This document shows positions 28,883 to 43,743 of a stretch of DNA of 44,814 nucleotides, piece by piece; the stretch's first letter is position 1, and the number at the start of each line of letters is the position of its first letter. The DNA lies in assembly GCA_036160735.1 (NCBI GenBank), contig JAYYDR010000038.1, positions 1-44,814 on the forward strand, in the 5' to 3' direction. This DNA comes from Thermoplasmatota archaeon (GTDB lineage Archaea; Thermoplasmatota; Poseidoniia; Poseidoniales; Poseidoniaceae). The notes beneath the pieces are model-generated. The model was not told the origin of the DNA. It saw nothing but the letters and a program-made list of their open reading frames with translations, and ran no database searches. The position numbers and the translations under genes were made by a program.

Positions 28883-30571
28883 TCAGGCTAAATTTAGACT
28901 GTCTGCCGCACGATAGCACATATCGATTAGAGTGTCTCCGGACAATCCTAGTAGAATTGTTGCAACTAGACAAATCCAAATTGCCATTCTAATCGATGCT
29001 CCGTATGGAAGTGGCTTGCGACGTCCCTCTTCTGGAACATCTAGGAACATTACAACACCAATTCTCAGGTAGTAGAATACTGAGATTGCGCTGTTTACGA
29101 ACATTGCAAGAGCAAGCCACCAAACCCAGTGTAAGTCTGAGAAGGATACTGTACCGTTCATCCAAAGTTCTCCAACACTTGTTGAAACGATTCCAGCGAT
29201 TACTAGGAACTTCGACATGAAGCCTGCTAGCGGAGGAACTCCTGCTAGAGCTAGCATGAAGATGAACATCGCAGTACCGATTAGTGGGTCTCTGCGTGCA
29301 AGTCCAGATAATGCTGACAATCGACTTGCTCCACCTTCCATCTCAAGTAGACCAAGAACAAGGAACGCACCCAACTTGAATGCAACAAGCACGAATAGAT
29401 GGAATAGCACTGCTGCTACAATCGCATCTGCATAATCTGCAGGTGCGTCGACCTCTCCCCACTTCCATGCTCCCACAGCGGTCATTGCTGCAAGCATGTA
29501 TCCAGCGTGTGCTACTGATGAATAAGCGAGCATTCTCTTTGGGTTGGTTGAGCCTAATGCTGCGATATTACCCCAAGTCATTGTGATGACAGAAAGTGTT
29601 GCAAGAGTGTACAACCAAACTGCACTCTCTTCTTCCCCTGTTTCTGGAAGTGCGATTACCAGCAGGACTCTGATCAATCCAATCATTCCCATCGCCTTGG
29701 ACGCTGTTGCCAGAACACCAGCAACTGGCGAGTTTGCTCCAGCATATGCATCAGGTGCTGCGAAGTGGAATGGCGCTGCAGAGACCTTGAATCCGAATCC
29801 CACTAGAACCAAACCTAGTGCAATTAATCCAAGAACGGATGATTCTGACCAGTTTGCTGCGATTTCATTAAGTTGAAGACTTCCGAATTCAAGGTATAGT
29901 AGTGACAGACCGTACAATCCAACTCCGCTTGCCACTGAACCAGTGATGAAGTACTTCACACCAGATTCTGCACCGGACTTTGATTCCTTGTGGAATCCAA
30001 CCAAAACATAGGTTGCAAGGCTAGCTAATTCTAGACCTACGAACAGTACGAAAAGGTCCTGGGCAAGTGCAACTGTGCACATACCAATAGCTGTTGTTAG
30101 CATCAGGATGTAGAAATCCGCTTGACGGCGGTTGTCATACAACTCTTCCAGACTCTTCTTTCCTTCGAAAGTGTGTGCTGGAATTCGGTCCAAACTTGCC
30201 ATAGATGCAAGAAGAACAGCCGCTAGGAACAGAATCTCAAAGAATCTAGAGAAGTTATCTAGTTGCAGAATGATTATGTCACCACTAACTACAGTTGTGG
30301 TGTCCATTTTCCCGTCAATTGCCTCGATTACCATCATTCCCAATGCTGTAAACAGTGTTCCTGTTGCAAGGATACCCGGAATAGCAGGTGAACCTGTCAA
30401 CTTGAATCTCCTACCCCCGAGGAACCAAGGAACTCTAACCTTAGTCAGTGGAATTCGGAATTTTGAGTTACCTAGGTTTGGAATGATGAAAATTAAGAGC
30501 AGCCCACAGATTAGGATAGTCTCTGGAGCAAAGGCCTTCCAGAAATCATTGCTGAATACCTCTACCTCCAT
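28883..30571 (-). CDS. nuoN: Complex I subunit N
   Basis: FVGLELAS, ESGVKYFITG, FKVSAAPFH, KRMLAYSSVAHAGY and LAGVPPLAGF. Confidence 0.93.
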   Translation of the reverse strand: MEVEVFSNDFWKAFAPETILICGLLLIFIIPNLGNSKFRIPLTKVRVPWFLGGRRFKLTGSPAIPGILATGTLFTALGMMVIEAIDGKMDTTTVVSGDIIILQLDNFSRFFEILFLAAVLLASMASLDRIPAHTFEGKKSLEELYDNRRQADFYILMLTTAIGMCTVALAQDLFVLFVGLELASLATYVLVGFHKESKSGAESGVKYFITGSVASGVGLYGLSLLYLEFGSLQLNEIAANWSESSVLGLIALGLVLVGFGFKVSAAPFHFAAPDAYAGANSPVAGVLATASKAMGMIGLIRVLLVIALPETGEEESAVWLYTLATLSVITMTWGNIAALGSTNPKRMLAYSSVAHAGYMLAAMTAVGAWKWGEVDAPADYADAIVAAVLFHLFVLVAFKLGAFLVLGLLEMEGGASRLSALSGLARRDPLIGTAMFIFMLALAGVPPLAGFMSKFLVIAGIVSTSVGELWMNGTVSFSDLHWVWWLALAMFVNSAISVFYYLRIGVVMFLDVPEEGRRKPLPYGASIRMAIWICLVATILLGLSGDTLIDMCYRAADSLNLA

Positions 30572-32287
30572 TCAGATCCCTCCCAAGTTGAATACACCCT
30601 CGAAGAAGGCAACAGTCCATTGATCCATCATTCCTAGTGCAATGAATGGGAATATACCAAAAATTACTGTGAATATTGCAAGTATGATCATTCCTATGTT
30701 TTCTGACAGAGTGATGTCTGGAGGTGTTTCGCCATTGAGAGATTCTGGAGGTTGTCCTTCATCTCCACCTTCAAAAATTGTCCTTTGCATAGACCACAGG
30801 TAGTATGCTGCTGTGATTGCTAGAACAGCACCAGGCAGAAGAATCCACCACCCGTATTCAGGCCAGAAGGCTATCATAACCATCAATTCAGCAACGAATC
30901 CTGCCAGCAGAGGTAGACCAAGGCTTGCCATCCAAGCGAACATCATGTATACTGCAAGGAAAGGTGACCACTTAGCCATTCCACGCATTGCACCGATTTC
31001 CATAGAGTGGTAGTGGTGCTTGAATGCGCCACAAACAGCGAACAGCATAGGAGAGATGATTCCGTGAGCGAACATCATGAATAGTGCAGCTGCATATCCA
31101 ATTGGCTGCATACTTGCGATACCGAGTAGAATTACACCCATGTGTGAAACAGATGAGTAAGCAACCATCTTCTTCAGGTTGGTTTGTCCCAAACAAACGA
31201 TTGAACCCCAAACAAGTGAGATTAGACCGATTGCCATAATCACATCTTGGTAGTATACCACTGCATCTGGGAAGATTGCGATAGGAATTCTCAGCATTCC
31301 GTATGCACCCATTTTTAACATGACACCTGCCAAGAGCATGGAGCCCCCAGTAGGCGCTTGCACGTGCGCATCAGGAAGCCAAGTGTGGAATGGTACGGCT
31401 GGTAATTTTACCAAGAATCCAATCATTAGCATAGCAAACAGAATGTTTTGCATGTCCTTGCCTAGGAAGACACTGTCTCCCATGTTGTATGCAGTTGCAT
31501 TAGAGAATAGTACAGTCATATCGAATGTTCTGCCGGTAACTGTTCCGTACTGAGCACCATTTCCTTCAGGTTGAAGGAAGTAGAGTGTAATCAGTCCGAG
31601 TAGCATGATTACCGAAGCACAGAATGTGTAGATGAAGAATTTCTGAGCAGCATATCTCCTGTCTTTTCCTCCCCACTTTAGAATTAGGAAGAACATAGGA
31701 ATTAGAGTCAATTCCCAGAATACGTAGAACAGGAAGAGGTCTAATGCGACGAATACGCCGATTAATGCTCCACCCATCATCAAAAGGAGAGGATGATAGG
31801 TCGCTCCATCTTTCTCATTCCAGGTTGTGATGATTGTGATTGGCACCAAGAAGGTGGTCAACCAAACCATTGGGAACGACAAGCCATCCATTCCAACGTG
31901 CCAAGATACACCGATTGATTCTATCCAAACGTACTCCTTCTCAAGCGCATATTCGTTGTACATCAAATCCCAATCGACCAAAATTAGCCAATCGAAGAAT
32001 AGTGCTGTTGATATTGCCAGAGGAATTAGAGAGGCAACCAATGTGAATAAACGAATTGGTACAGCAATCACTTCTTTCCTCGCTCTAGTCTCTTGGCTAG
32101 CGAACGCCAGTAGAATACAACTTACGATAATTGGGAATCCTACTAGAGGCAGGCTAATCCAATCGACTGATGTATCAGAGTCGCTCAATGATGGGAAGAA
32201 TGCCATCAATCCTGCAACGATTATCAGCAACCCTCCAATTAGCATGAACTCTTTGTTCTTGATGTCAAGTGCTTGGTTACTATTCAA
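30572..32287 (-). CDS. nuoM: Complex I subunit M
   Basis: FYVFWELTLIPM, PFHTWLPDAHVQAPTGGS, LKMGAYG and AYSSVSHMG. Confidence 0.94.
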   Translation of the reverse strand: MNSNQALDIKNKEFMLIGGLLIIVAGLMAFFPSLSDSDTSVDWISLPLVGFPIIVSCILLAFASQETRARKEVIAVPIRLFTLVASLIPLAISTALFFDWLILVDWDLMYNEYALEKEYVWIESIGVSWHVGMDGLSFPMVWLTTFLVPITIITTWNEKDGATYHPLLLMMGGALIGVFVALDLFLFYVFWELTLIPMFFLILKWGGKDRRYAAQKFFIYTFCASVIMLLGLITLYFLQPEGNGAQYGTVTGRTFDMTVLFSNATAYNMGDSVFLGKDMQNILFAMLMIGFLVKLPAVPFHTWLPDAHVQAPTGGSMLLAGVMLKMGAYGMLRIPIAIFPDAVVYYQDVIMAIGLISLVWGSIVCLGQTNLKKMVAYSSVSHMGVILLGIASMQPIGYAAALFMMFAHGIISPMLFAVCGAFKHHYHSMEIGAMRGMAKWSPFLAVYMMFAWMASLGLPLLAGFVAELMVMIAFWPEYGWWILLPGAVLAITAAYYLWSMQRTIFEGGDEGQPPESLNGETPPDITLSENIGMIILAIFTVIFGIFPFIALGMMDQWTVAFFEGVFNLGGI

Positions 32288-34498
32288 TCAAGCCACCCCC
32301 CATAGTAGAATGAAGATTACCAACGTGCCAAGGGCCGTCATCATGATGTAATCTCTAGCGCTACCTGTTGTAAGAGAACGAACTCTTCTGGAAGCTTCTT
32401 GACTCGTTGATTCGATTGTCTTGATTACACCATCAATGAACTTGGTGTCAAATATAGCTGACAACTTAGCAAATCCGACAACTATCTTCAACATCGCTGC
32501 GTCATAGACATCATCGAAGTGCAACCTCTTGTGCAAAGAGGTTGCTAGACTTGAATTAGCCCAAGCTGTGTTGTCGAATTTCGAATTCTTGTTGACTCTT
32601 GCAGAGAGGTTGATCGCCCACTGCATCCATGGCTTAGCCTTCTGGTCTCCATCTAAGCTACCACCATAAAGAGCCATTGCAAAGGATGGTCCAAGTACTA
32701 GAGACAGACCAATTGCGACATATGTCAGTACCATCAGGAAAGGATCTGGGTTGAGGAATACGTGCTCCATCTCATATCCGATTCCGTCAATGAAACTAGA
32801 ATAGTGTCCAGACTCGAAGTTACCTAACCAGTGTCCTGCGTGCATACCAGCTAAGATAACTGCACTCAGAGTCATGAAGGTTAGTATGACCAGCGGAATT
32901 GGTATCCAAGGTGTTTGCTCGTGAACGTGTTCTGCAACCTCTGTCTTTGGTTTACCTGCAAATGTCATGAACCACATTCTTGACATGTAGAATCCGGTCA
33001 TACCTGCACCGATTAGAATGAGCATAGCAGGAAGAAGGAAAATTGGTTCTTTCAATGCAACCTTCCATGCGCTTGCGATTATGCCTTCCTTGGACCAGAA
33101 TCCACCAATTAGTGGAATACCGATAATCGACATACTACCTACAAACATAGCAGTTGCAGTGATTGGCATTCTGCTTGCCAAACCACCCATATTCTCCATC
33201 GATTGAGCATCAAAGTGATCGTCGTGATGTTCGTCGTGATGGTCATCGTGGTGTTCATCATCGTGTCCGTGATGAGCAACCTCGTGATGAGCGTGGTGCA
33301 TCTCGTGTATTACAGAACCGGATGCCATGAAGAGCATTCCTTTTGCCATTGCGTGATTGAACAGGTGGAATAGGGATGCGCCCATTGCAAATCTTGCTAG
33401 GTCATCATAGCCATTGTTTGCTAGCCATAGCGCTGAACCTAGACCGGTGAATATGTATGCCAACTGACTCATTGTTGAGTAAGCAAGTACCTTCTTCAAG
33501 TCCATTTGGACGAATGCGATTAGAGCTGCCATTACCGCAGTAATACCACCAATTATTGCGATTACAATTGCAAGTGTGGAAAGTGCTCCTAATTCTGCTT
33601 CCATGAAGAATGGGAACATACGTGCTACAATGTAGAGTCCTGCGTTAACCATTGTTGCTGCGTGAATAAGCGCAGAAACCGGTGTAGGACCTTCCATAGC
33701 ATCTGGAAGCCAAACGTGTAGAGGGAATTGTGCAGACTTACCTACTGCCCCGATGAATATCATACCCAGTGCTAGCTGCAAGTCACCAGAGTTTACCTTT
33801 GCAATGTTTTCTGGGTCAAAGACGTATGCGTAATCTAGGTGACCGTCAAACATATTCCATAGCATCACAAGTCCGATTACCAGGAATACGTCACCTACAC
33901 GGGTTGTCAAGAAAGCCTTCTTTGCAGCGTATGCTGCACTAGGTCTCTCGTAGTAGAATCCAATCAATAGGTATGAACACAATCCCATCAATTCCCAGAA
34001 GATGAACAGCCATAGGAATGAATCAGCAAGTACCATTCCCAGCATTCCACTACAGAACAATACGAATTCTGCGTAGAAGCGGTGGTTCCTGTTATCGTTG
34101 ATTGGGTCTGTGTTCATGTATCCAATCGAGAAGATGTTGATTAGGAAACAGAGGAATGCTGCAACGAATAGTAGCATTACTGTTAGGTGGTCGATGTATA
34201 TTCCAAACCCGAATACCTTGGTAGTAATCGCACCGGTTTCCGAATTCCACCATGAAGATTCGAACCAAGTAAAGACGTCGGCAGCCCCTACCTTGTTCAT
34301 GTGTTCCTTGATTACCAATAGTGCAAGAACAAGGCTTGCACCCATTACAGTAAGTGCAATTATTCCTCCTTCCTTGACATTCTTCACCCAATTTGGTGTT
34401 CCATTGAACAATCTACCCAGGAACAAAATAACCGGGAATGCCAAGAATGGCATTAGGGGAATTAGTACGGCATAATCTATGATTTCACTTCCACTCAT
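32288..34498 (-). CDS. nuoL: Complex I subunit L, with a His/Asp-rich insertion
   Basis: FWELMGLCSYLLIGF, GKSAQFPLHVWLPDAMEGPTPVSALIHAATMV and KKVLAYSTMSQL. Confidence 0.95.
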   Translation of the reverse strand: MSGSEIIDYAVLIPLMPFLAFPVILFLGRLFNGTPNWVKNVKEGGIIALTVMGASLVLALLVIKEHMNKVGAADVFTWFESSWWNSETGAITTKVFGFGIYIDHLTVMLLFVAAFLCFLINIFSIGYMNTDPINDNRNHRFYAEFVLFCSGMLGMVLADSFLWLFIFWELMGLCSYLLIGFYYERPSAAYAAKKAFLTTRVGDVFLVIGLVMLWNMFDGHLDYAYVFDPENIAKVNSGDLQLALGMIFIGAVGKSAQFPLHVWLPDAMEGPTPVSALIHAATMVNAGLYIVARMFPFFMEAELGALSTLAIVIAIIGGITAVMAALIAFVQMDLKKVLAYSTMSQLAYIFTGLGSALWLANNGYDDLARFAMGASLFHLFNHAMAKGMLFMASGSVIHEMHHAHHEVAHHGHDDEHHDDHHDEHHDDHFDAQSMENMGGLASRMPITATAMFVGSMSIIGIPLIGGFWSKEGIIASAWKVALKEPIFLLPAMLILIGAGMTGFYMSRMWFMTFAGKPKTEVAEHVHEQTPWIPIPLVILTFMTLSAVILAGMHAGHWLGNFESGHYSSFIDGIGYEMEHVFLNPDPFLMVLTYVAIGLSLVLGPSFAMALYGGSLDGDQKAKPWMQWAINLSARVNKNSKFDNTAWANSSLATSLHKRLHFDDVYDAAMLKIVVGFAKLSAIFDTKFIDGVIKTIESTSQEASRRVRSLTTGSARDYIMMTALGTLVIFILLWGVA

Positions 34499-34507
34499 GA
34501 TAACACC

Positions 34508-34810
34508 TCAGTTCTTCAAGAGATTAACCTCATCTAGAGATATGGTCTCATGCTGTCCATACATTGAGAGGAAGATTGCCAATCCAATGGCTACTTCAGC
34601 TGCTGCGATTGCAATTGCGAATACAGCGTAAACCCAACCGGTGACGTCACCCCAATGAGATGCTGCTGCTACGAATTGTAGGTTTACTGCATTGAGCATC
34701 AATTCGATACACATCAGAACTACAATTGCGTTCTTTCTGCTGAATGCTCCCCACAAACCAATGATGAAAAGGATGGCTGCCAGACCAGATACCCATGCTG
34801 GATCAATCAT
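34508..34810 (-). CDS. nuoK: Complex I subunit K
   Basis: LMCIELMLNAVNL and IAAAEVAIGLAI. Confidence 0.95.
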   Translation of the reverse strand: MIDPAWVSGLAAILFIIGLWGAFSRKNAIVVLMCIELMLNAVNLQFVAAASHWGDVTGWVYAVFAIAIAAAEVAIGLAIFLSMYGQHETISLDEVNLLKN

Positions 34811-35079
34811 TCCTTTTCACCTCCAGTCAATTCCCACTCGAGATTCACCAATCGCTCGTCACGAACCAGATATGCTGCACCGACCATTGCCATAGCCATC
34901 AGGAAGCCAAGTGCCAGCAGGGGTAGAGCCCATTCGCCGAACAAAGCTTCTGATAAGTCACTGGTTGTCACTTCATAGTCTGATGAATCTTCCCAAACTA
35001 CGTCTGCAGATACTGCAGTAACCAAAACTGCCCCAAGGAATACTAGGCCAACCCTAGCAAGGATAGATAGTAATCTCAT
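34807..35079 (-). CDS. nuoJ: Complex I subunit J, C-terminal half (J2)
   Basis: LSEALFGEWALPL...LMAMAMVGAAYL resembles the NuoJ C-terminus. It lies between J1 and K with ATGA overlaps. Confidence 0.75.
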   Translation of the reverse strand: MRLLSILARVGLVFLGAVLVTAVSADVVWEDSSDYEVTTSDLSEALFGEWALPLLALGFLMAMAMVGAAYLVRDERLVNLEWELTGGEKE

Positions 35080-35357
35080 TCAAAGTCCTCCTCAAGTATC
35101 TGCCTTCTAGTCAGCATTATACCGAATAGTACCACTAACATAACGCTAGCAAGATAAACCAAGATTTGGATGACTGCAAGGAATTCTGCACCCATCAAGA
35201 TGAATATACCTGCAACTCCCATGAAACAGAAAATCAGGCACATCATTGAATGTGCAACCCTCTGCATGTAAATCAAGCCAAGAGCACCACCGATTACAAT
35301 GGTGCTCATCAAGAAAAACATTCCAACTTCAAGGTACATTGCCAGGTCCATGCTCAA
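35076..35357 (-). CDS. nuoJ: Complex I subunit J, N-terminal half (J1)
   Basis: HSMMCLIFCFMGVAGIFILMGAEFLAVIQILVY. Confidence 0.88.
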   Translation of the reverse strand: MSMDLAMYLEVGMFFLMSTIVIGGALGLIYMQRVAHSMMCLIFCFMGVAGIFILMGAEFLAVIQILVYLASVMLVVLFGIMLTRRQILEEDFE

Positions 35358-36313
35358 GCCTCCCCTGCCGCTTTTGCGGCTTTCTTGGCTCTCTTGTCAC
35401 GTTCCTTGCTAGCCCTCTTTGCTAGTTCTGCGTCGACCGCTTCTTGGTGGTCTCCGATGAGTACTCTAGTTCTACCTGCATCCATCCACAGGTCTTGTCG
35501 AGTAAATCCGGACATTCCGTCATACTCATTTGTCATGAAGAATGATGTGAAGTTGCATGCTTCCATGCACAGACCACAGAACATACAGCGGCCAAGGTCG
35601 ATTCTTCCTGAGACGATTTGGTCATCTGCTGGATACAGAGACTCTAGTGGAACGTTGTCGACTTCGCCGGTGTCATTCCAGCGCATGCGAGCACTGTTTC
35701 CCGATAGGTCTAGGACTTCTCCGAATCTCCATTCGTCTGGAGCATCGGTGTGAGCAGTTGCTAGGTTGAAGGAATCCATGGTCGCAGTGACTTCAGGCTT
35801 CTCAACAGCAGCGAACTTACCTACTTCGAGTTCAGCTCCATAGCCTTCCCACTCTCCTTCTGCACTGTCAAGAACGTCAACGCGTAGTTCGGTAGTCATG
35901 TGAAGACAGGAGTTTGGACAGATGTTTACGCACATCTTACATGCAGTACATGTCTCCCAAATGACACCGATTCTTCCGTTAAAATTACCTGGAACGAACA
36001 ACCAAGGTTCGATTTCTTCCAAGCGCTCGTACGGATAATTGACGGTTTGCGGCTTCCAAATTGTTGGAGTCAAGTCAGTTCCAGAGCGATCTGGAGTGTA
36101 GTGGTGTTGTGTAATATCGTTGATGTGCTTGGTCTTTTCAGCACGTGCAATATCTCCATCATCGATGAACTCAGGGTGAGTTGTGTTGTGATAACCGCTT
36201 GAGAATCTCTTTCCGATGAACTCGTAAGTTCTCAAAACGGTCAGTCCAGTTATCTTAAAGGGGTACCAGAATAGATTTCTGAAATTTGGTTTACCATGTG
36301 GATGCGATGCCAT
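35354..36313 (-). CDS. nuoI: Complex I subunit I (2x[4Fe-4S]) with a large insertion
   Basis: TVNYPYE, CTACKMCVNICP and IDLGRCMFCGLCMEAC. 110 residues separate the two Cys motifs. Confidence 0.9.
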   Translation of the reverse strand: MASHPHGKPNFRNLFWYPFKITGLTVLRTYEFIGKRFSSGYHNTTHPEFIDDGDIARAEKTKHINDITQHHYTPDRSGTDLTPTIWKPQTVNYPYERLEEIEPWLFVPGNFNGRIGVIWETCTACKMCVNICPNSCLHMTTELRVDVLDSAEGEWEGYGAELEVGKFAAVEKPEVTATMDSFNLATAHTDAPDEWRFGEVLDLSGNSARMRWNDTGEVDNVPLESLYPADDQIVSGRIDLGRCMFCGLCMEACNFTSFFMTNEYDGMSGFTRQDLWMDAGRTRVLIGDHQEAVDAELAKRASKERDKRAKKAAKAAGEA

Positions 36314-36322
36314 ATTATCACC

Positions 36323-37834
36323 TCACTCCTGTCCTGCTGTGTGCGTTCCCGCAGGTGTCATCGTTCGAATGTGATACATTCTTTCCTCATTCTCTTCGAT
36401 GTTTTCATCTTTCATCAAGACCACGAAGACCGCCAACCAGAACGCTGTTGTCAGGATCGGCAATCCCCATGGGATTGTGAATTCAAGAATAGTTAGGTCC
36501 CAAGCCCAGCCGCCGTTTTCGAAGTCTAGCGCGCTAGCATCGAAGAAGTAAAGGCGGTAAACCATCGATAGGACGACTTGTAGAACTGCAAGAGGAAGAA
36601 GCATTCTCCAACCGAATTCCAGAATTTGGTCAGTCCTAATTCTTGGTAGAGCAGTTCTTGCCCAAACGAATACTACTGTGAAGATGAACCAAGCCTTTAG
36701 CAGAGTCCAGATGATTCCAGGAATTGCCAAGTAAGCATCTCCGATGTATGGAATTGCGCCGATGGTACCTGCAAACGGCGCATGCCATCCACCCATGAAG
36801 AAGTGAGCGAATAGGATACTTGCTGCGTACACACGCATGTACTCAGCAGCAAATAGGAGACCGAATCGCATTCCTCCGTATTCAGTCCACCAGCCTTCTA
36901 CAAGTTCAGCTTCTGCTTCTGGCATATCGAAAGGAATTCTCTCTACTTCAGCAATCATGCTGACCAAAAACAAAACACCGCCGAGCGGCATCAAGAAGAA
37001 TAGCCAAGCACCAGAAGAGTGTTGGAAGTGAATGATTTCAAGGAAGTTGAATGAACCAGCCATAACACAAACTCCCAGAATTGAAAGTAGAAGTGGGATT
37101 TCGTACGCAGTCAACTGGGCTGCGCTTCTAATACCGCCAAGCAGAGTATACTTGTTATTAGATGACCATCCTGCAAAGAAGACTCCAAGAGGAGCGATAC
37201 CGAAGATTGCGAATGCGAACAGAACTGAAAGTTCTGGGTTTGCTCCGTAAATTCCGCTGGATAGTGGAATCATACCAAGAATCATGATTGTTGAGGAGAT
37301 TACTAGGAAAGGAGCCAACTCGAAGATTACCTTGTCAGCCCTTGATGGAACCATATGCTCCTTGGTAAGGAACTTCATTCCGTCAGCGATGTTTTGGAAG
37401 AAACCAGGGAAGATGGTTACACCATACCATGACCGGTTTCCAACTCTGTTGACCATTTCTTGCTCGTGGCCTTTGTTGCCTGCTACCTTGTTTAGCCACT
37501 TGTTGATTGCTCCGATAGGCTTACCGATTCCATAAGGAAGCATATTCCACCATTCACCAGCAGTTACTCCATTTTCTCCAACCCAAAGCGAGCGAAGAGC
37601 GGTTGTAGCACCACGACGGTCGTTTACACGTGCGTAGAATTTCCTCTCAATCCACAAAATCATGAACATAGAGAGCATAATTCCACCAAAAGTCACCAAA
37701 CAGGTCACCAAGGTGAAAACGAAGAATGCAATATCGTTTGATGAGGATTCAAGGAATGTTCCGTCGAGAAGACTAGAGAAAATATCTCTAGTTTTGTCGT
37801 ATACAAGGTCGTGGAGTTGTAGCCAGTCATCCAT
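36323..37834 (-). CDS. nuoH: Complex I subunit H
   Basis: ERKFYAR, ADGMKFLTKE, GWSSNNKYTLLGGIRSAAQ and ERIPFDMPEAEAELVEG. Start ATG 37834 behind a GAGGTGA RBS. Confidence 0.95.
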   Translation of the reverse strand: MDDWLQLHDLVYDKTRDIFSSLLDGTFLESSSNDIAFFVFTLVTCLVTFGGIMLSMFMILWIERKFYARVNDRRGATTALRSLWVGENGVTAGEWWNMLPYGIGKPIGAINKWLNKVAGNKGHEQEMVNRVGNRSWYGVTIFPGFFQNIADGMKFLTKEHMVPSRADKVIFELAPFLVISSTIMILGMIPLSSGIYGANPELSVLFAFAIFGIAPLGVFFAGWSSNNKYTLLGGIRSAAQLTAYEIPLLLSILGVCVMAGSFNFLEIIHFQHSSGAWLFFLMPLGGVLFLVSMIAEVERIPFDMPEAEAELVEGWWTEYGGMRFGLLFAAEYMRVYAASILFAHFFMGGWHAPFAGTIGAIPYIGDAYLAIPGIIWTLLKAWFIFTVVFVWARTALPRIRTDQILEFGWRMLLPLAVLQVVLSMVYRLYFFDASALDFENGGWAWDLTILEFTIPWGLPILTTAFWLAVFVVLMKDENIEENEERMYHIRTMTPAGTHTAGQE

Positions 37835-37844
37835 GGTAATCACC

Positions 37845-38984
37845 TCAACGGTCAGTCTCCCCGATACATGGGTCGAAACTACCCATGATCGCTGGGATGT
37901 CGGCAACCTTGTATCCAATCATAGTCTTTGCAACGTATGGAATTGTGATAAACATTGGAGAACGGATGGAGACTCGGTAAGGATTCTTTCCTCTTCCATC
38001 TCCACCGCCTTGCAAGTAGAAGTTTGAAACTCCTCTAGTACATTCATAGGTGCTGAAACCTGTTGCGCCTTCAGGAGCGCGTGTCGGTGCTTTGGTGATT
38101 AGCATCTCATCGCCCGGCTGATAGTGAGTGTTTGCACCACCCGGAATCTTCTCGATTGCGTCTAGCAACATGCGGCATGACTGTCGCATTTCTTCCATTC
38201 TGACTCTGTATCTGTCGTAACAATCTGCTCCCTTGACGCTAGTTGGCTTTTCGACCGCAGGCTCCCAGTCCACTTGGTCATATACGGAGTACGGATTTGT
38301 CCATCTTGCATCTGCGTTTACTCCAGCAGCACGAATGTTTGGACCTGTTACACCGGCGTCAATTTGGTCTTCGGCTGTTGCATAACCTACACCTTGTAGC
38401 CTAACCAGCCAAATTGTTGACTCATCCAGTAACATTTCGTATTCTTTGATTCTGTTTTCGAATAACTTGACCTTTGCCTTGAGCCTGTTTGCCCAACCGA
38501 TTGGTATGTCTCTCTTTACACCGCCAACTCTTGGATAGTTGTAGTGCATACGAGAACCGCCTAGTTCTTGTAGCAAATCTAGGAACATTTCTCTGTCACG
38601 TAGACACCAAGTCATCAGGGTTAGATTTCCAATGTCAGGGCCGAATGCACCTAGCCACATCAAGTGGCTTGCTAGCCTCTGAACTTCAGCTGCCATTAAA
38701 CGGATGTATTCTGCGCGCTCTGGAACTTCTGCTTCAAGCAGGTCTTCTGCAGCCATAACATAGGAATGTGACCAAGTCATTGCGCTTACATAACAAAGTC
38801 TGTCACAATATGGTGTGATTTGGGTGAAGTCTCTCGCTTCACAGATTTTCTCTACACCACGGTGAATGTATCCCAATTCTGCTTCAGTGTCGGTGACTGT
38901 TTCACCGTCTACTTTCACACGTAGAGTCCACAATCCGTGTGTCATTGGGTGTTGAGGTCCCATTGTAATCCACATTTCTGCCAT
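37845..38984 (-). CDS. nuoD: Complex I subunit D (FpoD-like)
   Basis: MGPQHPMTHG, GYIHRGVEK, DRLCY, RLASHL, DCYDRY and C-terminal GSFDPCIGETDR. Confidence 0.95.
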   Translation of the reverse strand: MAEMWITMGPQHPMTHGLWTLRVKVDGETVTDTEAELGYIHRGVEKICEARDFTQITPYCDRLCYVSAMTWSHSYVMAAEDLLEAEVPERAEYIRLMAAEVQRLASHLMWLGAFGPDIGNLTLMTWCLRDREMFLDLLQELGGSRMHYNYPRVGGVKRDIPIGWANRLKAKVKLFENRIKEYEMLLDESTIWLVRLQGVGYATAEDQIDAGVTGPNIRAAGVNADARWTNPYSVYDQVDWEPAVEKPTSVKGADCYDRYRVRMEEMRQSCRMLLDAIEKIPGGANTHYQPGDEMLITKAPTRAPEGATGFSTYECTRGVSNFYLQGGGDGRGKNPYRVSIRSPMFITIPYVAKTMIGYKVADIPAIMGSFDPCIGETDR

Positions 38985-38993
38985 AATAACACC

Positions 38994-39647
38994 TCACTTT
39001 ACGCGGCCCTCATCCACCGGTTTCCGGTCAAATCCTTGCGGATCGTCATACATTTCATTGAAATCGTGATAGCGAATTTTATGTTGCCTTTGAAGGGGGT
39101 GGAAACCGGTTGGTGAATCGTGCGGATTTAGCACTCTATGCATGTTCTCATGACCTTCGAAATCAATTCCGACCAAGTCCCAGGTTTCTTTCTCGTTCCA
39201 ATCTGCTCCAACCCAGATGTCCTGAACTGAAGGGACTGAAGGTGAATCTCCTGTTGCTAATGGAATGAAAATCTCAAACTCCATTGGAATGTCATCGCCT
39301 TCTAGTGATTCTCCTTTGTGGACAGTCATTGTGTGCGCCTCCACGTTCTTGATTGGCCATCTGTGTAGGTGGTAAGCAACCTCCCAGCCTCTGTCGGCCC
39401 CTCCATCAGGGTAGTGAGTGCCTGTTACCATTGCACAGTGGTTTACACCCAGTTCGTGCTTTAGGTGCTTAGCGACTGCTCTCCATTGGTCAGGAGAGCA
39501 TGTGATTCTGACAAAATCAAATTTTTTGCCTGCAGAGTGAGATATGATTTCGATGGTCATACCAGCATCTGCGAATCGCTCTGCGAGGTTATCCGCAGCA
39601 GCTTGCGCTGCTGTAGTGTTCTGCTCTTTTGTAATGGTCGTACCCAT
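38994..39647 (-). CDS. nuoC: Complex I subunit C
   Basis: VPSVQDIWVGADWNEKETWDLVGIDFEGH...HPL. Confidence 0.9.
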   Translation of the reverse strand: MGTTITKEQNTTAAQAAADNLAERFADAGMTIEIISHSAGKKFDFVRITCSPDQWRAVAKHLKHELGVNHCAMVTGTHYPDGGADRGWEVAYHLHRWPIKNVEAHTMTVHKGESLEGDDIPMEFEIFIPLATGDSPSVPSVQDIWVGADWNEKETWDLVGIDFEGHENMHRVLNPHDSPTGFHPLQRQHKIRYHDFNEMYDDPQGFDRKPVDEGRVK

Positions 39648-39648
39648 T

Positions 39649-40245
39649 TCAGTCCTCTCCTACGATGATTGGCTTGTCGCCGTCACGGCCAGAAGAAGGC
39701 GCTCCACCGATACGGATGATCTTTTCACGAAGTTTTCCAAACCCATCGATTAACGCCTCTGGACGAGGTGGGCATCCCGGAATGTAAACGTCAACAGGGA
39801 TGACTGTGTCAACCCCTTCTAGGATGTTGTAAGACTGATAGTATGGACCGCCGGAAATTGCGCATTCACCCATTGCAATGCAGTATTTTGGCTCTGGCAT
39901 TTGCTCCCATAGCCTAACGATTGGGTCAGCGAATTTCTTTGAAATCGGACCATTGACAAGCAACACGTCAGACTGACGCGGGCTCGAGCGGAACAGTACA
40001 CCGAAACGGTCGCCATCAAACCTAGGGGTTGCTGAAGCGGCCATTTCAATTGCACAGCACTTGATTCCAAGGTGGAGTGTGAACAGCGACTTGCGGCCAG
40101 CCCAATTGAAGAATCGTCCTGCAAGAACACTCAACAGTTGCTTGATCTTGGTAGCCTTAAGCGCTTCATCGGTTACGTCTCCAACAATTTCGACAAGTGT
40201 TCTGCTATTGAACGTAGTATAATTCTCTCCAGTATCGCTCATCAT
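39649..40245 (-). CDS. nuoB: Complex I subunit B
   Basis: CCAIEM, RSSPRQSD, QMPEPKY.IAMGECAISGG and VDVYIPGCPPRPEAL. Confidence 0.96.
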   Translation of the reverse strand: MMSDTGENYTTFNSRTLVEIVGDVTDEALKATKIKQLLSVLAGRFFNWAGRKSLFTLHLGIKCCAIEMAASATPRFDGDRFGVLFRSSPRQSDVLLVNGPISKKFADPIVRLWEQMPEPKYCIAMGECAISGGPYYQSYNILEGVDTVIPVDVYIPGCPPRPEALIDGFGKLREKIIRIGGAPSSGRDGDKPIIVGED

Positions 40246-40251
40246 ATCACC

Positions 40252-40734
40252 TCAGATGTAAATTCGACCTCGCTTTCTGAATACATGCCAGACTCCTAGA
40301 GTCATTGTTGCGAAGAACACGATCAGAACAATCATCTCAGTTCCAACCGCTGCGATAGGGTCTGCTGTGGAGGATTCTGTTGCATCCATTGCTAGTAATC
40401 CTCCTAAGGCCATGAACATGAATGCAACATCGAATACCAAGAAAATAATCGCATACCAGTAGTATTGGAAGTGGAATTGAATCATCGCTTCACCGACTGG
40501 TTCTGAACCACATTCGTAGGTAGAAAGACGACGAGGGTATAGGCTATGGTCACGCTCATATCCTTCCATTAACCATGACTTTGTCATGTGTGGCCTAGAG
40601 GAATCAACCTTGGGCATAACGAAGTACTGAGTGATGAATGCGCCAAGTGGCATACCTATGCCGATTAAGGTCATCCACAACATCGAAAGATAGGTGCCTG
40701 TAACCGTTTCTGCGCCGACCAACTGTGCCACCAA
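40252..40734 (-). CDS. nuoA: Complex I subunit A
   Basis: TYECGSEP and FQYYWYAIIFLVFDV; three TM segments. Confidence 0.92.
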   Translation of the reverse strand: MVAQLVGAETVTGTYLSMLWMTLIGIGMPLGAFITQYFVMPKVDSSRPHMTKSWLMEGYERDHSLYPRRLSTYECGSEPVGEAMIQFHFQYYWYAIIFLVFDVAFMFMALGGLLAMDATESSTADPIAAVGTEMIVLIVFFATMTLGVWHVFRKRGRIYI

Positions 40735-40839: not shown

Positions 40840-43743
40840 TCATTTGCGTCTTCTCAGGATTAAAGATGCGAAGCCGATTAGAACCAAAGCACCGATTCCG
40901 TAGAGGACGTTAGGAGTGATTAGTGAATTGAGTGCAAATTCCTCAGGTTCGCCATTCACAGTCAACTTGATGTTCTCCCTACCGGCTAGTCCAATTTCTG
41001 TTGGCTCAACTGATAATGTGAATGTAAATACATCCTCAACTTCGGCTGTCTCTCCTCCTGGTGGGTTTACTTTAGCTGTAATTTGAACCGTTTCTCCTGC
41101 AGGAATCATGCAAAGAATGTGATCTCCCTTGTCTTGGCATTCTGCACCAGACTCGTAACCCAAAATTACGTTCCAGCCTCTAACGCCAACACTGGAGAAT
41201 ATCTTGAACTCGGCTTCGATATTTCCGGTGTTCATGACGTCTACTTCAAAACGAGGAGATTTACCAATTTGGCCAAAGGTGATATCTTTCTCATTATCAC
41301 CTAGTACGATTAATTCAGCATCAAGAACAGTCTCAACAGACAGTGAGAATGTCACTTTACCACTGCGGTTAGCAGCATTTGATACTGAAGTTACTACCAA
41401 TTCAAGCAAACCACCATCACCATTTTCAGCACCGTTATTGACTTCAATTTCCAGCGTAATTATTGCATAGAATGGCATTGGAATGTGAGAATCTACGATT
41501 CCATTGTCTACTATCTTCTCGAAAATCTTGTCTTCTGTAGATCCTAGTAGAGGAGAATTACCATCGTAGTAGAACGTTCCAGTGGTTTCATTGAACGCTC
41601 CCCATCCCTTTGGAATAGTGATTGGTCCTTCAACAGGCATACCTCTGTAGATTAATTCGCGACTTGCTATTCCGGTTAGTCCACTGAAGTCAAATATTGC
41701 TTCATCTGTCAAATCACCGGTATTGGTTACTTTGAGATCGAAGGATTGAGTTCCACCGGGAGGTAGGATTAGGACCTCATTTCTGGACAAGTCATCTGCA
41801 TTATTCATTATGATAACGTCCATTGCGAAATCTCTGTCTGATAGAATCGCCCTGAACATGAACTCAAGTTGATTATCAGGGACACCATTTTCGTCAGAAT
41901 CTCCATTGTTATTGTCTCCAAGATTTGTGACTCTGACGGTTAATCTTGTGCTCTCTAATTCTTCTTCACCATCTATTGATACAACAAGATACATTGTGAT
42001 TGTACCCCTTGCTGGAATATCGACTTCAGTTACGATAGTACCATCTTCTGTTTCGAAATGCTTGCCCCAAGCAGGTTGTGCTGTTTGAGAAATAACAGAG
42101 AACCTAAATCTGTCCAATGTATTTCCATCATTGTTGACAACAATTGGGAATTGAACAGTCGTATCTGAGCGACCTGTTTGGTCGTCAGCAGGTGTCTCTC
42201 CGCTCATTGCATGAACTGCTTTTACGGTTGCAACTAGTTCAGCGGTGTCATAAGCTCCACCGCTTGATTGAGGTAATACAGAGAAGACTATCGTTACCTC
42301 CTCTGTTGCTAGGGCATCAAGCGGGAGAGAAATTGTGACCTCTATTGTTCCGGATTTTTCTGCGTTGTTGAACCTAGACTGTGTAGAAATTGTTGAGGAT
42401 TCGAGAGTAACCGACCAGCCTGCGGGCAAGGAGGATGCTGCTACTCTGAAGGTATCTGGGCCGTTTCCAGTGTTTGTTACAGTAAGCGTTGTGCTCCTGT
42501 CTTGACCTGGCGGAATGTCATAAATTCCAGTGTTACCCAAAGAAATTGTTGCACCTCTTGACTGACCGACAGTAACTGTAACTTCGCCTCTACATTTCCA
42601 GAAGTTGCCATCCTTACCCTCGATGTAAAATGAGTTCTGCGAGTTTGCTTCTACTGAATCATCAGGTGTTATTTCAATAGTGAATTCCTTTTCTCCATTG
42701 CCATTGTCATAGTTTAGCATACCACTAGATGCACCATCAACACCAGCCCAGCTTGATTTGCTTCCATTGAACCCGACATTAATTTGCCAGTCCGTATTTC
42801 CCTCATTTGAGAATGTTGCTAGCAAAGTTCCTGTTTCTCCTGGTTCAAGGCTTAAGCTTGACTTTGACAAAGTTACGTCACACTTTTTCAGTTCGGGAAT
42901 AAAAAGACTGAATTCTTCAACATCGGAAGCACTACCGTTTGGATTCTGGTCGTTTGTAACCACGCCCTCAATTTCCCAGCAGTACTTATCGCTTTCTTTA
43001 CCCTCAGGGACTTGAACAGTTACAGTGACCCATTCAGAAGATCCATTGTCGATTTGGACTGAACTAGGACTTACATCGATACTCAAACTTCCATCAGACT
43101 TGCAGCCACTTCCGCTCCTTGGGTCTACGGTCAGTTCAACGGTCTCTTGAACACGACCAGTGTTCTCCACCTCCACATCCCAAGTGATTTCATCTTCACC
43201 GTTCCATGTAGGGTTAACTGGGGCATCGATGGTAAGTTCTACACCGAACAGTGTAGAACCGGAGCCATCACCGGATGTAGTTTCAACATCTGCTGATTTC
43301 TGTGCGGGTGCGCCTGGTTGGTCAGGAGGAGTTGGTTGTTCGTTGGCATTTGCGTTCACAGTGGTGATGCATGAACCCTCAGCGTTTTGAGCGAGTGTGA
43401 CATTGAGGAATGTTTCAGCATTGTCGCCTGATTCAATAGGTTGTCCTATTTGACCAATCGCGGCAGAAAATCCAGTACAGTCCTGCTCATTGTTAGCTGC
43501 AAGGTTTACTGAAACCGGGTTTGCCCCGTCATTGTAGACGCGTACCGTGTACTCTGCAGTTTCGCCAGGGTTCACAGTTTGGGCGCTTGGAGAAATTGTC
43601 AATCTGATATTTGCATCTCTTCCGGAATCGTCCGCAACAACAGGAGTTGCTAATGCTGGAACTAGGGAAAATAGCATCAATGAGACCAGGAAAATACTGG
43701 TGATGCCTTTACCGGCTTTCGGGTCTTCTCTGCGGGGTTCCAT
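40840..43743 (-). CDS. Large surface protein with repeated NEW3/CARDB-like beta-sandwich domains (COG1470-like) and a C-terminal TM anchor
   Basis: Signal peptide and repeated 'V.PG.....L.V.NTGN..D.F' units (LPAGWSV). Ends YGIGALVLIGFASLILRRRK. Confidence 0.82.
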   Translation of the reverse strand: MEPRREDPKAGKGITSIFLVSLMLFSLVPALATPVVADDSGRDANIRLTISPSAQTVNPGETAEYTVRVYNDGANPVSVNLAANNEQDCTGFSAAIGQIGQPIESGDNAETFLNVTLAQNAEGSCITTVNANANEQPTPPDQPGAPAQKSADVETTSGDGSGSTLFGVELTIDAPVNPTWNGEDEITWDVEVENTGRVQETVELTVDPRSGSGCKSDGSLSIDVSPSSVQIDNGSSEWVTVTVQVPEGKESDKYCWEIEGVVTNDQNPNGSASDVEEFSLFIPELKKCDVTLSKSSLSLEPGETGTLLATFSNEGNTDWQINVGFNGSKSSWAGVDGASSGMLNYDNGNGEKEFTIEITPDDSVEANSQNSFYIEGKDGNFWKCRGEVTVTVGQSRGATISLGNTGIYDIPPGQDRSTTLTVTNTGNGPDTFRVAASSLPAGWSVTLESSTISTQSRFNNAEKSGTIEVTISLPLDALATEEVTIVFSVLPQSSGGAYDTAELVATVKAVHAMSGETPADDQTGRSDTTVQFPIVVNNDGNTLDRFRFSVISQTAQPAWGKHFETEDGTIVTEVDIPARGTITMYLVVSIDGEEELESTRLTVRVTNLGDNNNGDSDENGVPDNQLEFMFRAILSDRDFAMDVIIMNNADDLSRNEVLILPPGGTQSFDLKVTNTGDLTDEAIFDFSGLTGIASRELIYRGMPVEGPITIPKGWGAFNETTGTFYYDGNSPLLGSTEDKIFEKIVDNGIVDSHIPMPFYAIITLEIEVNNGAENGDGGLLELVVTSVSNAANRSGKVTFSLSVETVLDAELIVLGDNEKDITFGQIGKSPRFEVDVMNTGNIEAEFKIFSSVGVRGWNVILGYESGAECQDKGDHILCMIPAGETVQITAKVNPPGGETAEVEDVFTFTLSVEPTEIGLAGRENIKLTVNGEPEEFALNSLITPNVLYGIGALVLIGFASLILRRRK

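Follow-up and report, generated by a model that had tools for sequence, protein, structure and literature searches.

An SH3/Tudor-like barrel between the two cluster motifs of NuoI probably shapes the electron entry site of complex I in Poseidoniales

We found that NuoI of Poseidoniales (Marine Group II), the 2x[4Fe-4S] subunit of an 11-subunit complex I without N-module, carries a lineage-specific module of about 85 residues, consisting of a linker and a small beta-barrel, which interrupts the beta-hairpin between its cluster motifs at the tip and probably shapes the electron entry site of the enzyme. In the best explanation, to which we give an even chance, the barrel caps or buttresses this site as an accessory part built into NuoI, and the donor is probably a 7Fe ferredoxin. 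The uncultured archaea of Marine Group II rank among the most abundant archaea in surface ocean waters, and all readings presented here are computational. A conserved folded domain at the putative electron-entry apex offers a handle on the search for the electron donor of the archaeal 11-subunit complex I and on the adaptation of an N-module-less complex I, since its roughly 85 residues, some of them invariant, could be expressed as a domain. The complex I of Marine Group II is treated as "canonical" in an earlier account (Tully 2019).

We identified nuoI between nuoH and nuoJ in the window, which is the whole stretch of 44,814 nucleotides that was analysed, and its reading frame translates into 319 amino acids plus stop (Table 1). 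The surrounding operon is recognised by the Pfam families Oxidored_q4, q6, Complex1_30kDa, 49kDa, NADHdh, q2 and, three times, Proton_antipo_M, with Oxidored_q3 (nuoJ) split across the frames 35076-35357 and 34807-35079. The protein has the two C-x2-C-x2-C-x3-C motifs of the 2x[4Fe-4S] ferredoxin fold by which NuoI/NdhI/TYKY subunits are recognised, and the eight cysteine columns are kept across 146 sequences, six of them invariant and those of C122 and C132 at least 90% conserved. Pfam returns Fer4 families in two stretches, and the match to TIGR01971 (E 1.3e-17) is likewise split in two by the insert; its 63.5 bits stay below the curated cut-off of 113.05 bits, which we attribute to the insert and the extensions and not to non-membership. 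When the predicted model was searched with Foldseek, all 45 PDB matches listed at E <= 0.001 were NuoI-type chains, including the homologous formate hydrogenlyase subunit 7z0s_F, with NuoI chain 7p7k_I at the top (E 9.2e-07), and the best sequence matches among solved structures were NdhI chains (7eu3_I, E 4.1e-15; 6hum_I, E 9.4e-14). As the preliminary description of this DNA had implied, NuoE, NuoF and NuoG are absent from the operon; Complex1_51K (PF01512), 2Fe-2S_thioredx (PF01257) and FrhB_FdhB_C (PF04432) have no match in the genome (80.6% complete), in which no NuoE, NuoF or FpoF-type gene thus shows, the absence of NuoG referring to the operon only.

Table 1. Features of the nuo operon and of NuoI, with positions in the window
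Feature	Position	Strand	Basis
nuo operon A-B-C-D-H-I-J(two ORFs)-K-L-M-N	28883..40734	minus	ORFs, Pfam
nuoI, 2x[4Fe-4S] subunit of 11-subunit complex I	35354..36313	minus	ORF, Fer4, TIGR01971, Foldseek
N-terminal extension, residues 1-85, with predicted amphipathic helices 11-29 and 31-37	36059..36313	minus	both models
EPWLFVP loop, residues 102-108	35990..36010	minus	region seven residues longer than in NdhI
First cluster motif, C122-x2-C125-x2-C128-x3-C132-P133	35915..35950	minus	translation; aligned to C73-P74 of T. elongatus NdhI
Inter-motif hairpin, outgoing strand, residues 137-145	35879..35905	minus	second model
Insert linker, residues 146-184, with strand 167-171 and helices 173-179 and 184-187	35762..35878	minus	models
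SH3/Tudor-like beta-barrel, residues 185-232	35618..35761	minus	models, VIA-align, hhalign, conservation
Hairpin returning strand, residues 233-242	35588..35617	minus	strand to residue 239 in second model
Second cluster motif, C243-x2-C246-x2-C249-x3-C253, then N254-F255 instead of P	35549..35587	minus	translation
C-terminal Lys/Ala/Glu-rich helix, residues 290-318	35360..35446	minus	second model

Next, we examined the size and distribution of the insert. The preliminary description had proposed a Tudor/SH3-like barrel in the region 35606..35896, which corresponds exactly to residues 140-236, had quoted peptide strings that do occur in the translation, and had contrasted 110 residues between C132 and C243 with about 30 in typical NuoI. 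Both figures hold: the two cysteines lie 111 positions apart, their counterparts C73 and C103 in T. elongatus NdhI lie 30 apart, and cyanobacterial NdhI, like most of the canonical NuoI compared, has a spacing of 29-30. The 51 NuoI-type sequences that lack the long spacer include 29 with a spacing of 28-30 (range 21-51), whereas all 94 aligned relatives have 109-114 residues. Of 155 other genomes sampled from the order, 153 contain a full-length match, which together with the uniform spacing rules out chance or an assembly artefact as the source of the insert, and the sister families are without it. The unusual residue after the last cysteine ligand, which had also been pointed out, is indeed N-F here but varies within the order: the 94 insert-bearing relatives have P in 46 cases, G in 17, N in 13, S in 8, D in 6, K in 2 and H and A in one each, a count that leaves out one Poribacteria-type row, P0188 (full table: 95 long-spacer rows, P 47). 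The insert alone matches no Pfam or NCBIfam family apart from DUF7435, a faint match (E 0.024) that we disregarded as its identity, and a search of the ESM Atlas with residues 140-236 returned only ferredoxin-type clusters of the atlas itself (score 0.76), with no structure record. A six-frame hmmsearch of the genome found no paralogue of the barrel below E 2 and hence points to no gene from which the domain could have been acquired. We found no description of this insert among the papers listed in a literature search of freely accessible article texts.

Two independent AlphaFold runs with different alignments predict an SH3-like barrel for residues ~185-232, with the same strands in both models (195-204, 207-212, 218-222 and 226-239) and with a pLDDT of 79-90 in the first run and 82-86 in the second, so that the segment is predicted neither as disordered nor as some other fold. 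The structural comparison of the barrel by VIA-align gave Z 5.9-7.3 against KOW (5ohq_A, Z 7.3), Tudor (5yj8_A, Z 7.3, rmsd 3.0, 58 of 60 residues aligned; 4qq6_A, Z 6.3) and NdhS structures (6a7k_B, Z 6.3, 56 aligned, rmsd 2.8, rank 19; 6hum_S, Z 5.9, 52 aligned, rank 37), the NdhS matches being tied with many other small barrels; since every match is below Z 8, these values place the fold class only. Foldseek adds NdhO (6nbq_O) with a TM of 0.60 over 69 columns. In sequence, hhalign of the insert against 45 eukaryotic Tudor repeats gave Prob 90.7 and E 1.2e-06 over 52 columns, with a target set that is biased as it was found by the query itself, and single repeats score just 8-14 bits each, the low E-values being a sum over near-identical repeats. 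The only non-NuoI-type proteins noticed and checked among the 150 matches listed from a search of 1.84 billion proteins were five multi-Tudor proteins, and the insert and Tudor domains have a core pattern around W-x-x-G-E-V...R-W-x-D-x-G in common. The Tudor domain (PF00567; for example in TDRD3 and SMN) is a five-stranded SH3-like barrel, as is the insert, but TUDOR has no match at E up to 1 in either the whole protein or the insert alone, nor has the NdhS Pfam family at the same limit. The four-aromatic cage of Tudor domains for methyl-Arg or methyl-Lys appears to be only partly kept, the conserved residues at or near cage-like positions in the alignments being H188, W212 and F197 alone.

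We then compared conservation across the parts of the protein. H188 and W212 of the barrel are invariant in 94 sequences, and F197 (95%), E199, G205, A208, D214 and A229 are conserved in 93-97% of them. The linker motif G157-x-G159...E163-x-G165..A168-A169 is conserved in the same 94 sequences (G157, G159, E163, G165, A168 and A169, 95-99%), as are R144 and V145 of the outgoing hairpin strand (100%) and I233, V234, S235, G236, I238, D239, G241 and R242 of the returning strand (97-100%), which aligns to residues 95-102 of T. elongatus NdhI. The barrel as a whole is the least conserved region of NuoI, with a mean pairwise identity of 49% versus 84-88% in the Fe-S core; the C-terminal helix has 69%, and residues 286-319 carry a net charge of +1 to +5 in 30 of 30 homologues. 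Six positions of the EPWLFVP loop (E102, P103, W104, L105, F106 and P108) show no variation across 30 of 30 sequences, and all four NdhI alignments show the seven-residue gap at this region. The insert is acidic, as previously described, with a net charge of -15 (-11 to -20 in 30 of 30 homologues); however, the whole proteome is acidic too, 12.7% of its 110-residue windows being at -15 or below, and we therefore give the acidity of the insert less weight as an argument in both directions.

The position of the insert was assessed by homology to the cyanobacterial and chloroplast NDH-1L (6HUM, 6KHJ, 6L7O, 6NBQ), which, like the Poseidoniales complex, has an 11-subunit core without NuoEFG. In the alignment, C132/P133 and C243 of NuoI correspond to C73/P74 and C103 of T. 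elongatus NdhI, and the stretch between these NdhI cysteines holds Lys86, Lys89 and Lys91, which contact ferredoxin (Zhang 2020). The inter-motif hairpin of NDH-1L binds ferredoxin and NdhV on opposite sides, the ferredoxin cluster lies 9.6 A away from N6a, and ferredoxin binding depends on a basic patch (Pan 2020). By this analogy the barrel would sit on the tip of the hairpin that in cyanobacteria binds ferredoxin through lysines next to N6a, and we infer its proximity to that cluster from homology, which would place it close to the distal cluster and not far from it. The surface at which it is inserted is covered by NuoG in NADH-dependent enzymes and is the ferredoxin, NdhV, NdhS and NdhO surface in photosynthetic ones. 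NdhS and NdhO, themselves SH3-like barrels, can be superposed on the Poseidoniales insert, with NdhS ranking level with many other small barrels. The two systems differ in that NdhS is a separate subunit in the NdhI groove whereas the Poseidoniales barrel is covalent and within the hairpin tip, in that the NdhI tip is basic and Lys-rich whereas NuoI here has an acidic domain instead, and in that the hosts of NDH-1L are photosynthetic, unlike this archaeon.

We propose that the barrel would fix the hairpin, form one wall of the donor pocket and limit access to N6a, and in this way may do the job of the separate small subunits NdhS, NdhV and NdhO of cyanobacteria. The donor would probably be a 91-residue 7Fe-type ferredoxin, which is very conserved and occurs in 61 of 61 genomes of the order, reduced by a 2-oxoacid:ferredoxin oxidoreductase (POR_N is present), and it would touch chiefly the conserved NuoI/NuoD core. 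The variability of the barrel suits a cap better than a precise interface, although it would also fit a tolerated decoration. Both the insert and this ferredoxin (net -21, pI 4.05) are acidic, unlike the basic patch on which cyanobacterial binding relies, which counts against the cap. Co-folding of NuoI residues 86-319 with the 7Fe ferredoxin and three 4Fe-4S clusters gave a score of 0.45, versus 0.07 for the best of three controls, with at least 96% contact agreement between runs and a partner pLDDT of at least 89. The mark is reached by 58 of 80 solved complexes and by 2 of 110 mismatched pairs, at 0.60 or under by just 7 of the 80 and by both mismatches, and these runs differ from the calibration in their alignments and riding ligands. 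As solved ferredoxin-NDH-1 complexes exist, the pass may reflect the predictor's prior exposure to them, and the predicted pairing lends weak support to a NuoI-ferredoxin contact, with no interface given.

The same evidence bears on the idea, put forward in the preliminary description, that a docking barrel analogous to NdhS has been fused into NuoI to recruit the donor. The barrel would then be a direct docking domain, in which a conserved pocket of H188, F197, W212 and D214 recognises the donor in the way that Tudor domains read motifs, the partner being either the 7Fe ferredoxin or a basic protein; we consider this unlikely. The hairpin-tip position taken from NDH-1L, the alignment of the invariant H188 and W212 with the Tudor core motif and the co-folding result are consistent with it, and an acidic barrel suits a basic partner such as two paralogous 110-residue dicluster ferredoxins with Lys/Arg-rich N-tails (pI 8.1 and 6.3). 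However, their genes adjoin cytochrome-b-like genes and not nuo, the barrel surface is far more variable than the 7Fe ferredoxin, with which it shares its acidity, and the co-folding yields no interface. Moreover, NdhS has no direct contact with ferredoxin in either of the ferredoxin-bound NDH-1L structures (Pan 2020; Zhang 2020). The fold, its order-wide conservation and its site agree with what had been proposed, whereas the recruitment of the donor by the barrel is doubtful.

It is about equally improbable that the insert is purely structural, stabilising the peripheral arm together with the N-terminal extension, the EPWLFVP loop and the C-terminal helix, or shielding N6a from oxygen in an aerobic surface-ocean organism, with no part in the choice of donor. 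Several additions do occur within this one protein, the conserved residues cluster in the linker motif and the barrel core and not over the whole surface, and in E. coli the lineage-conserved extensions of NuoI, NuoB, NuoF and the NuoG loop are described as solely enlarging inter-subunit contacts (Kolata and Efremov 2021). Those extensions are extended, unfolded tails of an enzyme with an N-module, whereas the Poseidoniales insert is a predicted folded domain at the place where the N-module is lacking. Any bulky domain at the electron-entry apex must also affect donor access, and in sister families without the insert the hairpin tip stays basic while redox modules have been added, which points to selection on electron input at NuoI. 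Finally, that the barrel is a tether or regulatory reader of nucleic acid or of a modified protein, linking the enzyme to another cell structure, is very improbable: in fold it most resembles KOW and Tudor domains from proteins that bind nucleic acid or methyl marks, and some relatives have a C-terminus about 130 residues longer in which a helix-hairpin-helix family is faintly recognised (IMS_HHH, E 0.0095 in P0015), but the strongly acidic surface is ill-suited to nucleic acid, only H188 and W212 of the putative four-aromatic cage are invariant, and no fold match reaches Z 8.

Upon extending the comparison to other lineages, we observe different additions to NuoI. In the sister-family NuoI, only about 37 residues precede a conserved TV-YP motif, so that the N-terminal extension of the Poseidoniales protein stands out, and other input modules are attached to NuoI in the sister families, including an extra 2x[4Fe-4S] domain. 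In one sister family of the same class (G031), a 719-residue NuoI/MbxN-type subunit with Fer4_20 and Pyr_redox_2 lies inside the nuo operon and is fused to an NAD(P)H flavoprotein of the NfnB/SudA/GltD type, whereas the NuoI encoded in the window has no added redox domain. A separate GltD-like flavoprotein was considered as a Poseidoniales partner and dropped: the genome of the window has no close homologue of the flavoprotein part (best match 29% identity, residues 315-517, E 1.6e-06), a 96%-complete genome of the order (G006) has no match, and four other genomes gave matches of only 25-29% identity in open frames of ~312-356 residues. There is a small chance that the H188/W212 pocket reads a motif on the physiological donor of Marine Group II complex I and that Poseidoniia thus have three input solutions. 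If so, the class would show three genetically visible ways to feed an N-module-less complex I, namely a hairpin-inserted barrel, an extra 2x[4Fe-4S] domain and a nested GltD-type NAD(P)H flavoprotein, and the donor question for the archaeal 11-subunit complex I would become directly testable with the isolated barrel.

Among bacteria, Candidatus Poribacteria have an 11-subunit operon (nuoA-B-C-D-H-I-J...L-M), and in 120 of 120 members of this family that we examined, 89-108 residues separate the two motifs of NuoI, an insert that we did not meet in the literature searched. It lies at the same hairpin and is unrelated in sequence to that of Poseidoniales, homology between the two being rejected (hhalign Prob 0.2). 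Together with the sister lineages, this marks the inter-motif hairpin as a place where insertions recur, and both comparisons count in favour of the cap reading. Among the relatives of 438-458 residues, a reading as NuoI-NuoJ fusions fails for P0015 and P0016, whose C-termini are extended by something else, whereas P0030 is such a fusion, with PF00499 at residues 370-431.

We found that the NuoI of the window carries between its two cysteine motifs a conserved, order-specific, folded SH3/Tudor-like domain, made up of a linker (residues 146-184) and a barrel (185-232). The gap is unusually long, as the preliminary description had it, with a spacing of 111 between C132 and C243, whereas that of the aligned C73 and C103 of T. 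elongatus NdhI is 30; the spacing is 28-30 in 29 of the 51 NuoI-type sequences without a long spacer (range 21-51). The stretch singled out at the time, 35606..35896, corresponds exactly to NuoI residues 140-236. Pfam detects only 4Fe-4S families in NuoI, split over two stretches, and because the match is split the NuoI model TIGR01971 scores 63.5 bits (E 1.3e-17), under its cut-off of 113.05 bits. Among solved structures, NdhI of chloroplasts and cyanobacteria matches best in sequence (7eu3_I, E 4.1e-15; 6hum_I, E 9.4e-14), aligning as two pieces that flank the insert. From ORFs and Pfam matches, the operon order in the window is nuoA-B-C-D-H-I-J (two ORFs)-K-L-M-N, without nuoE, nuoF or nuoG.

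Coordinates of NuoI, its cluster motifs and the other loci discussed
Feature	Position	Strand	Remarks
nuoI	35354..36313	minus	ORF translation, 319 aa
First cluster motif of NuoI	C122/125/128/132-P	minus	ferredoxin-type
Second cluster motif of NuoI	C243/246/249/253-N-F	minus	ferredoxin-type
nuoJ, two ORFs	34807-35357	minus	93 aa (Pfam positions 1-63) and 90 aa (81-146)
nuoL	32288-34498	minus	736 aa
nuoH	36323-37918	minus	531 aa as called
Acidic flanking protein	40840-43743	minus	967 aa
Acidic flanking protein	21819-24581	minus	920 aa
nuoI, family f3, genome G001	L003 1423-2193		no barrel
nuoI, family f3, genome G003	L002 1420-2217		no barrel
nuoI, family f4, G031:C15	L129 3960-6119	minus	719 aa
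nuoI, Poribacteria example	L050 6001-6720		
Ferredoxin/cytochrome-b-like locus, own genome	C73 1816-5282		
Ferredoxin/cytochrome-b-like locus, own genome	C77 3545-7814		

A NuoI search against 5.8 billion proteins gave 312 relatives with E up to 0.001; identity to the query is 54-92% for the 120 listed, whose names, where given, are Poseidoniales, Poseidonia or Thermoplasmatota, and in all 94 aligned full-length relatives the spacer measures 109-114 residues. Among 200 other genomes of the class, 155 of them from the window's order, a NuoI match was present in 153 of these 155 (89/89 in family f1 and 64/66 in f2, which we take to be the GTDB families of MGIIa and MGIIb); the 150 matches listed are 54-99% identical to the query, starting at its residues 1-6 and reaching 315-319. 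Within the insert-bearing set, mean pairwise identity was 84% and 88% in the two Fe-S core halves, 69% in the C-terminal tail, 58% in the insert linker, 52% in the N-terminal extension and 49% in the barrel. H188 and W212 are 100% conserved, and G157, G159, E163, G165, A168, A169, F197, E199, G205, A208, D214 and A229 are 93-99% conserved. The insert had also been called acidic, which holds for its net charge (-15 here, -11 to -20 in 30/30 homologues), but the proteome is acidic too, its 110-aa windows averaging -6.7 (SD 7.6) with 12.7% at or below -15. Separately, the Poseidoniales NuoI proteins P0015, P0016 and their relatives continue for ~130 residues past a Lys/Ala-rich helix (open frames of 452-462 aa), where a weak resemblance to helix-hairpin-helix (IMS_HHH, E 0.0095) is the sole signal.

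The barrel read by eye in the preliminary description was recovered in two AlphaFold2 models, one from 30 sequences (mean pLDDT 51, rising to 75-90 in most of 161-230) and one from 146 sequences (mean pLDDT 75.6). Both agree on strands 137-145 (hairpin) and 167-171 (short), helices 173-179 and 184-187, and barrel strands 195-204, 207-212, 218-222 and 226-239. A fold search independent of Foldseek, over 48,161 representative chains, aligned mostly residues 149-234 and returned small SH3-like barrels, led by a KOW domain (5ohq_A, Z 7.3, 45 aligned, rmsd 0.9) and the TDRD3 Tudor domain (5yj8_A, Z 7.3, 58 of 60 aligned, rmsd 3.0), with NdhS at rank 19 (6a7k_B, Z 6.3, 56 aligned, rmsd 2.8) and rank 37 (6hum_S, Z 5.9, 52 aligned, rmsd 2.7); as all matches lie under Z 8, they place the fold class and not the family. 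With the second model, Foldseek put NuoI chains first (7p7k_I, E 9.2e-07) and NdhO (6nbq_O) at rank 50.

Run exhaustively against 1.84 billion representatives, phmmer picked up 457 proteins with E not above 0.001. Besides NuoI-type proteins, the matches listed include five very long ones; all are multi-Tudor proteins of eukaryote type, each with 5-13 PF00567 stretches. Their low whole-protein E-values arise because many near-identical repeats add up, single Tudor repeats scoring 8-14 bits each against a profile built from 94 inserts. When the insert and 45 distinct Tudor repeats were compared profile to profile, 52 columns covering the barrel core aligned with Prob 90.7 (E 1.2e-06), and pairwise alignments share the pattern W-x-x-G-E-V-L ... 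R-W/F-x-D-x-G. Because the Pfam TUDOR model found no match in NuoI at E up to 1, we term the domain no more than Tudor-like.

The insert is placed at the tip of a hairpin, and in the closest relatives of known structure this hairpin makes up the ferredoxin site. C122/125/128 and C253 would presumably ligate N6a, following the T. thermophilus assignment, and we infer the barrel's position relative to this cluster from homology. In the consulted sections of Pan et al. 2020 (PMC6992706), the NdhI loop stands out above the hydrophilic arm of NDH-1, with ferredoxin on one face and NdhV on the other, forms a basic patch with the NdhH C-terminus, and brings the cluster of ferredoxin to 9.6 A from N6a; those of Zhang et al. 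2020 (PMC7021789) name Lys86, Lys89 and Lys91 as ferredoxin contacts of NdhI and place NdhS in the NdhI groove, holding NdhV. In our alignment these lysines fall between P74 and C103, a region that is the tip of the very hairpin bearing the insert. The earlier proposal of NdhS-like docking is supported as to location; the same sections of both papers state that NdhS and ferredoxin are not in direct contact. Whereas the small cyanobacterial barrels are separate subunits acting indirectly, the barrel here is built into NuoI.

No N-module genes were found in the operon or in the window's own genome (80.6% complete), where Complex1_51K, 2Fe-2S_thioredx and FrhB_FdhB_C had no match. At the end of one of its contigs this genome encodes a 2-oxoacid:ferredoxin oxidoreductase domain, and it further has two ETF pairs and, among Fe-S motif ORFs, a 91-aa 7Fe-type ferredoxin (pI 4.05, net charge -21), found in 61/61 sampled genomes of the order at 68-100% identity, with a mean column identity of 90% (25 aligned sequences from the 30 best-matching loci). 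Two further ORFs in it encode paralogous dicluster ferredoxins of 110 aa whose N-terminal tails are basic, each adjoining a convergent cytochrome-b-like gene of 934-937 aa; these loci are probably the orphan 'RnfB' in the parts of Tully 2019 consulted. The cytochrome-b-like proteins have two Cys motifs each.

Co-folding NuoI residues 86-319 with the 7Fe ferredoxin and three 4Fe-4S clusters scored 0.45 (best of 3 controls, 0.07), on a mark reached by 58/80 solved complexes and 2/110 mismatched pairs, of which only 7 of those 80 and both mismatches lay at 0.60 or under; our alignments and ligands differ from those of the calibration. Runs agreed in at least 96% of contacts with a partner pLDDT of at least 89, and no interface was given. 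Because solved ferredoxin-NDH-1 complexes exist, the pass may reflect memorised structures. The result lends weak support to a NuoI-ferredoxin pairing and says nothing specific about the barrel.

We favour, with about even confidence, a barrel that serves the electron entry site as an integral accessory cap or buttress. A specific donor docking domain, which the location would suit, is rather unlikely, because variation is greatest on the barrel surface while the candidate ferredoxin hardly varies, because the analogous cyanobacterial barrels act indirectly, and because the charges of insert and ferredoxin suggest no attraction. Similarly doubtful is a purely structural or protective insert, consistent with lineage-specific E. 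coli NuoI additions that can be purely stabilising in the sections consulted of PMC8357420. That the barrel works as a tether or reader, as KOW and Tudor domains typically do, seems very unlikely.

In the sister families f3 and f4, presumably Marine Group III-like in GTDB, other arrangements occur. The f3 proteins (256-265 aa) have a spacer of 41 residues with a basic tip (…AKRKS…); an additional 2x[4Fe-4S] ferredoxin domain at the C-terminus brings their Fer4 stretches to four. The f4 protein, encoded inside the nuo operon between nuoH and nuoK, comprises the NuoI core, a third Cys motif, Fer4_20, a flavoprotein of the GltD/NfnB type (Pyr_redox_2) and one more Cys motif; this last motif is 70-71% identical to the f3 C-terminus, so the flavoprotein is nested in the extra ferredoxin domain, which gives this NuoI an input module of NAD(P)H type of its own. 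The gene is followed 3' by two ORFs of 116 and 385 aa that have no Pfam match, then by nuoK and nuoL.

One distant NuoI-type sequence has a 90-residue spacer, and its family comprises 380 clusters at E 1e-20 or below, with spacers of 89-108 residues in 120/120 members examined; of the 80 loci kept (L049-L128), 77 carry the title Poribacteria and the other 3 'uncultured bacterium'. In NuoI of Candidatus Poribacteria (220-240 aa) the same hairpin holds 59-78 inserted residues, and the one locus annotated has an 11-subunit nuo operon, nuoA-B-C-D-H-I-J...L-M without E, F and G. The Poribacteria and Poseidoniales inserts have no profile similarity (Prob 0.2), so additions to the hairpin tip arose at least twice, each time in an operon that lacks the N-module. 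The literature searched made no mention of an insert in Poseidoniales NuoI, nor did the consulted parts of the Asgard preprint 10.1101/2024.07.04.601786 and of Tully 2019, which terms the Poseidoniales complex I canonical.

Elsewhere in the operon, nuoJ is split, and the relative P0030 has NuoI fused to the first NuoJ half. NuoL contains a His/Asp-rich stretch (…HHAHHEVAHHGHDDEHHDDHHDEHHDDH…), possibly a metal-binding or low-complexity loop. The TTG start of nuoH overlaps the nuoD end, the protein measures 390-464 aa in the sister families, and the Pfam NADHdh match starts only at residue 157, so either a long stretch has been added at the N-terminus or the start is set wrongly. The operon region is flanked by two acidic proteins of very large size, likely surface proteins, in which Ig-like, fn3-like or CARDB domains occur; the 967-aa one has a hydrophobic stretch at its C-terminus.
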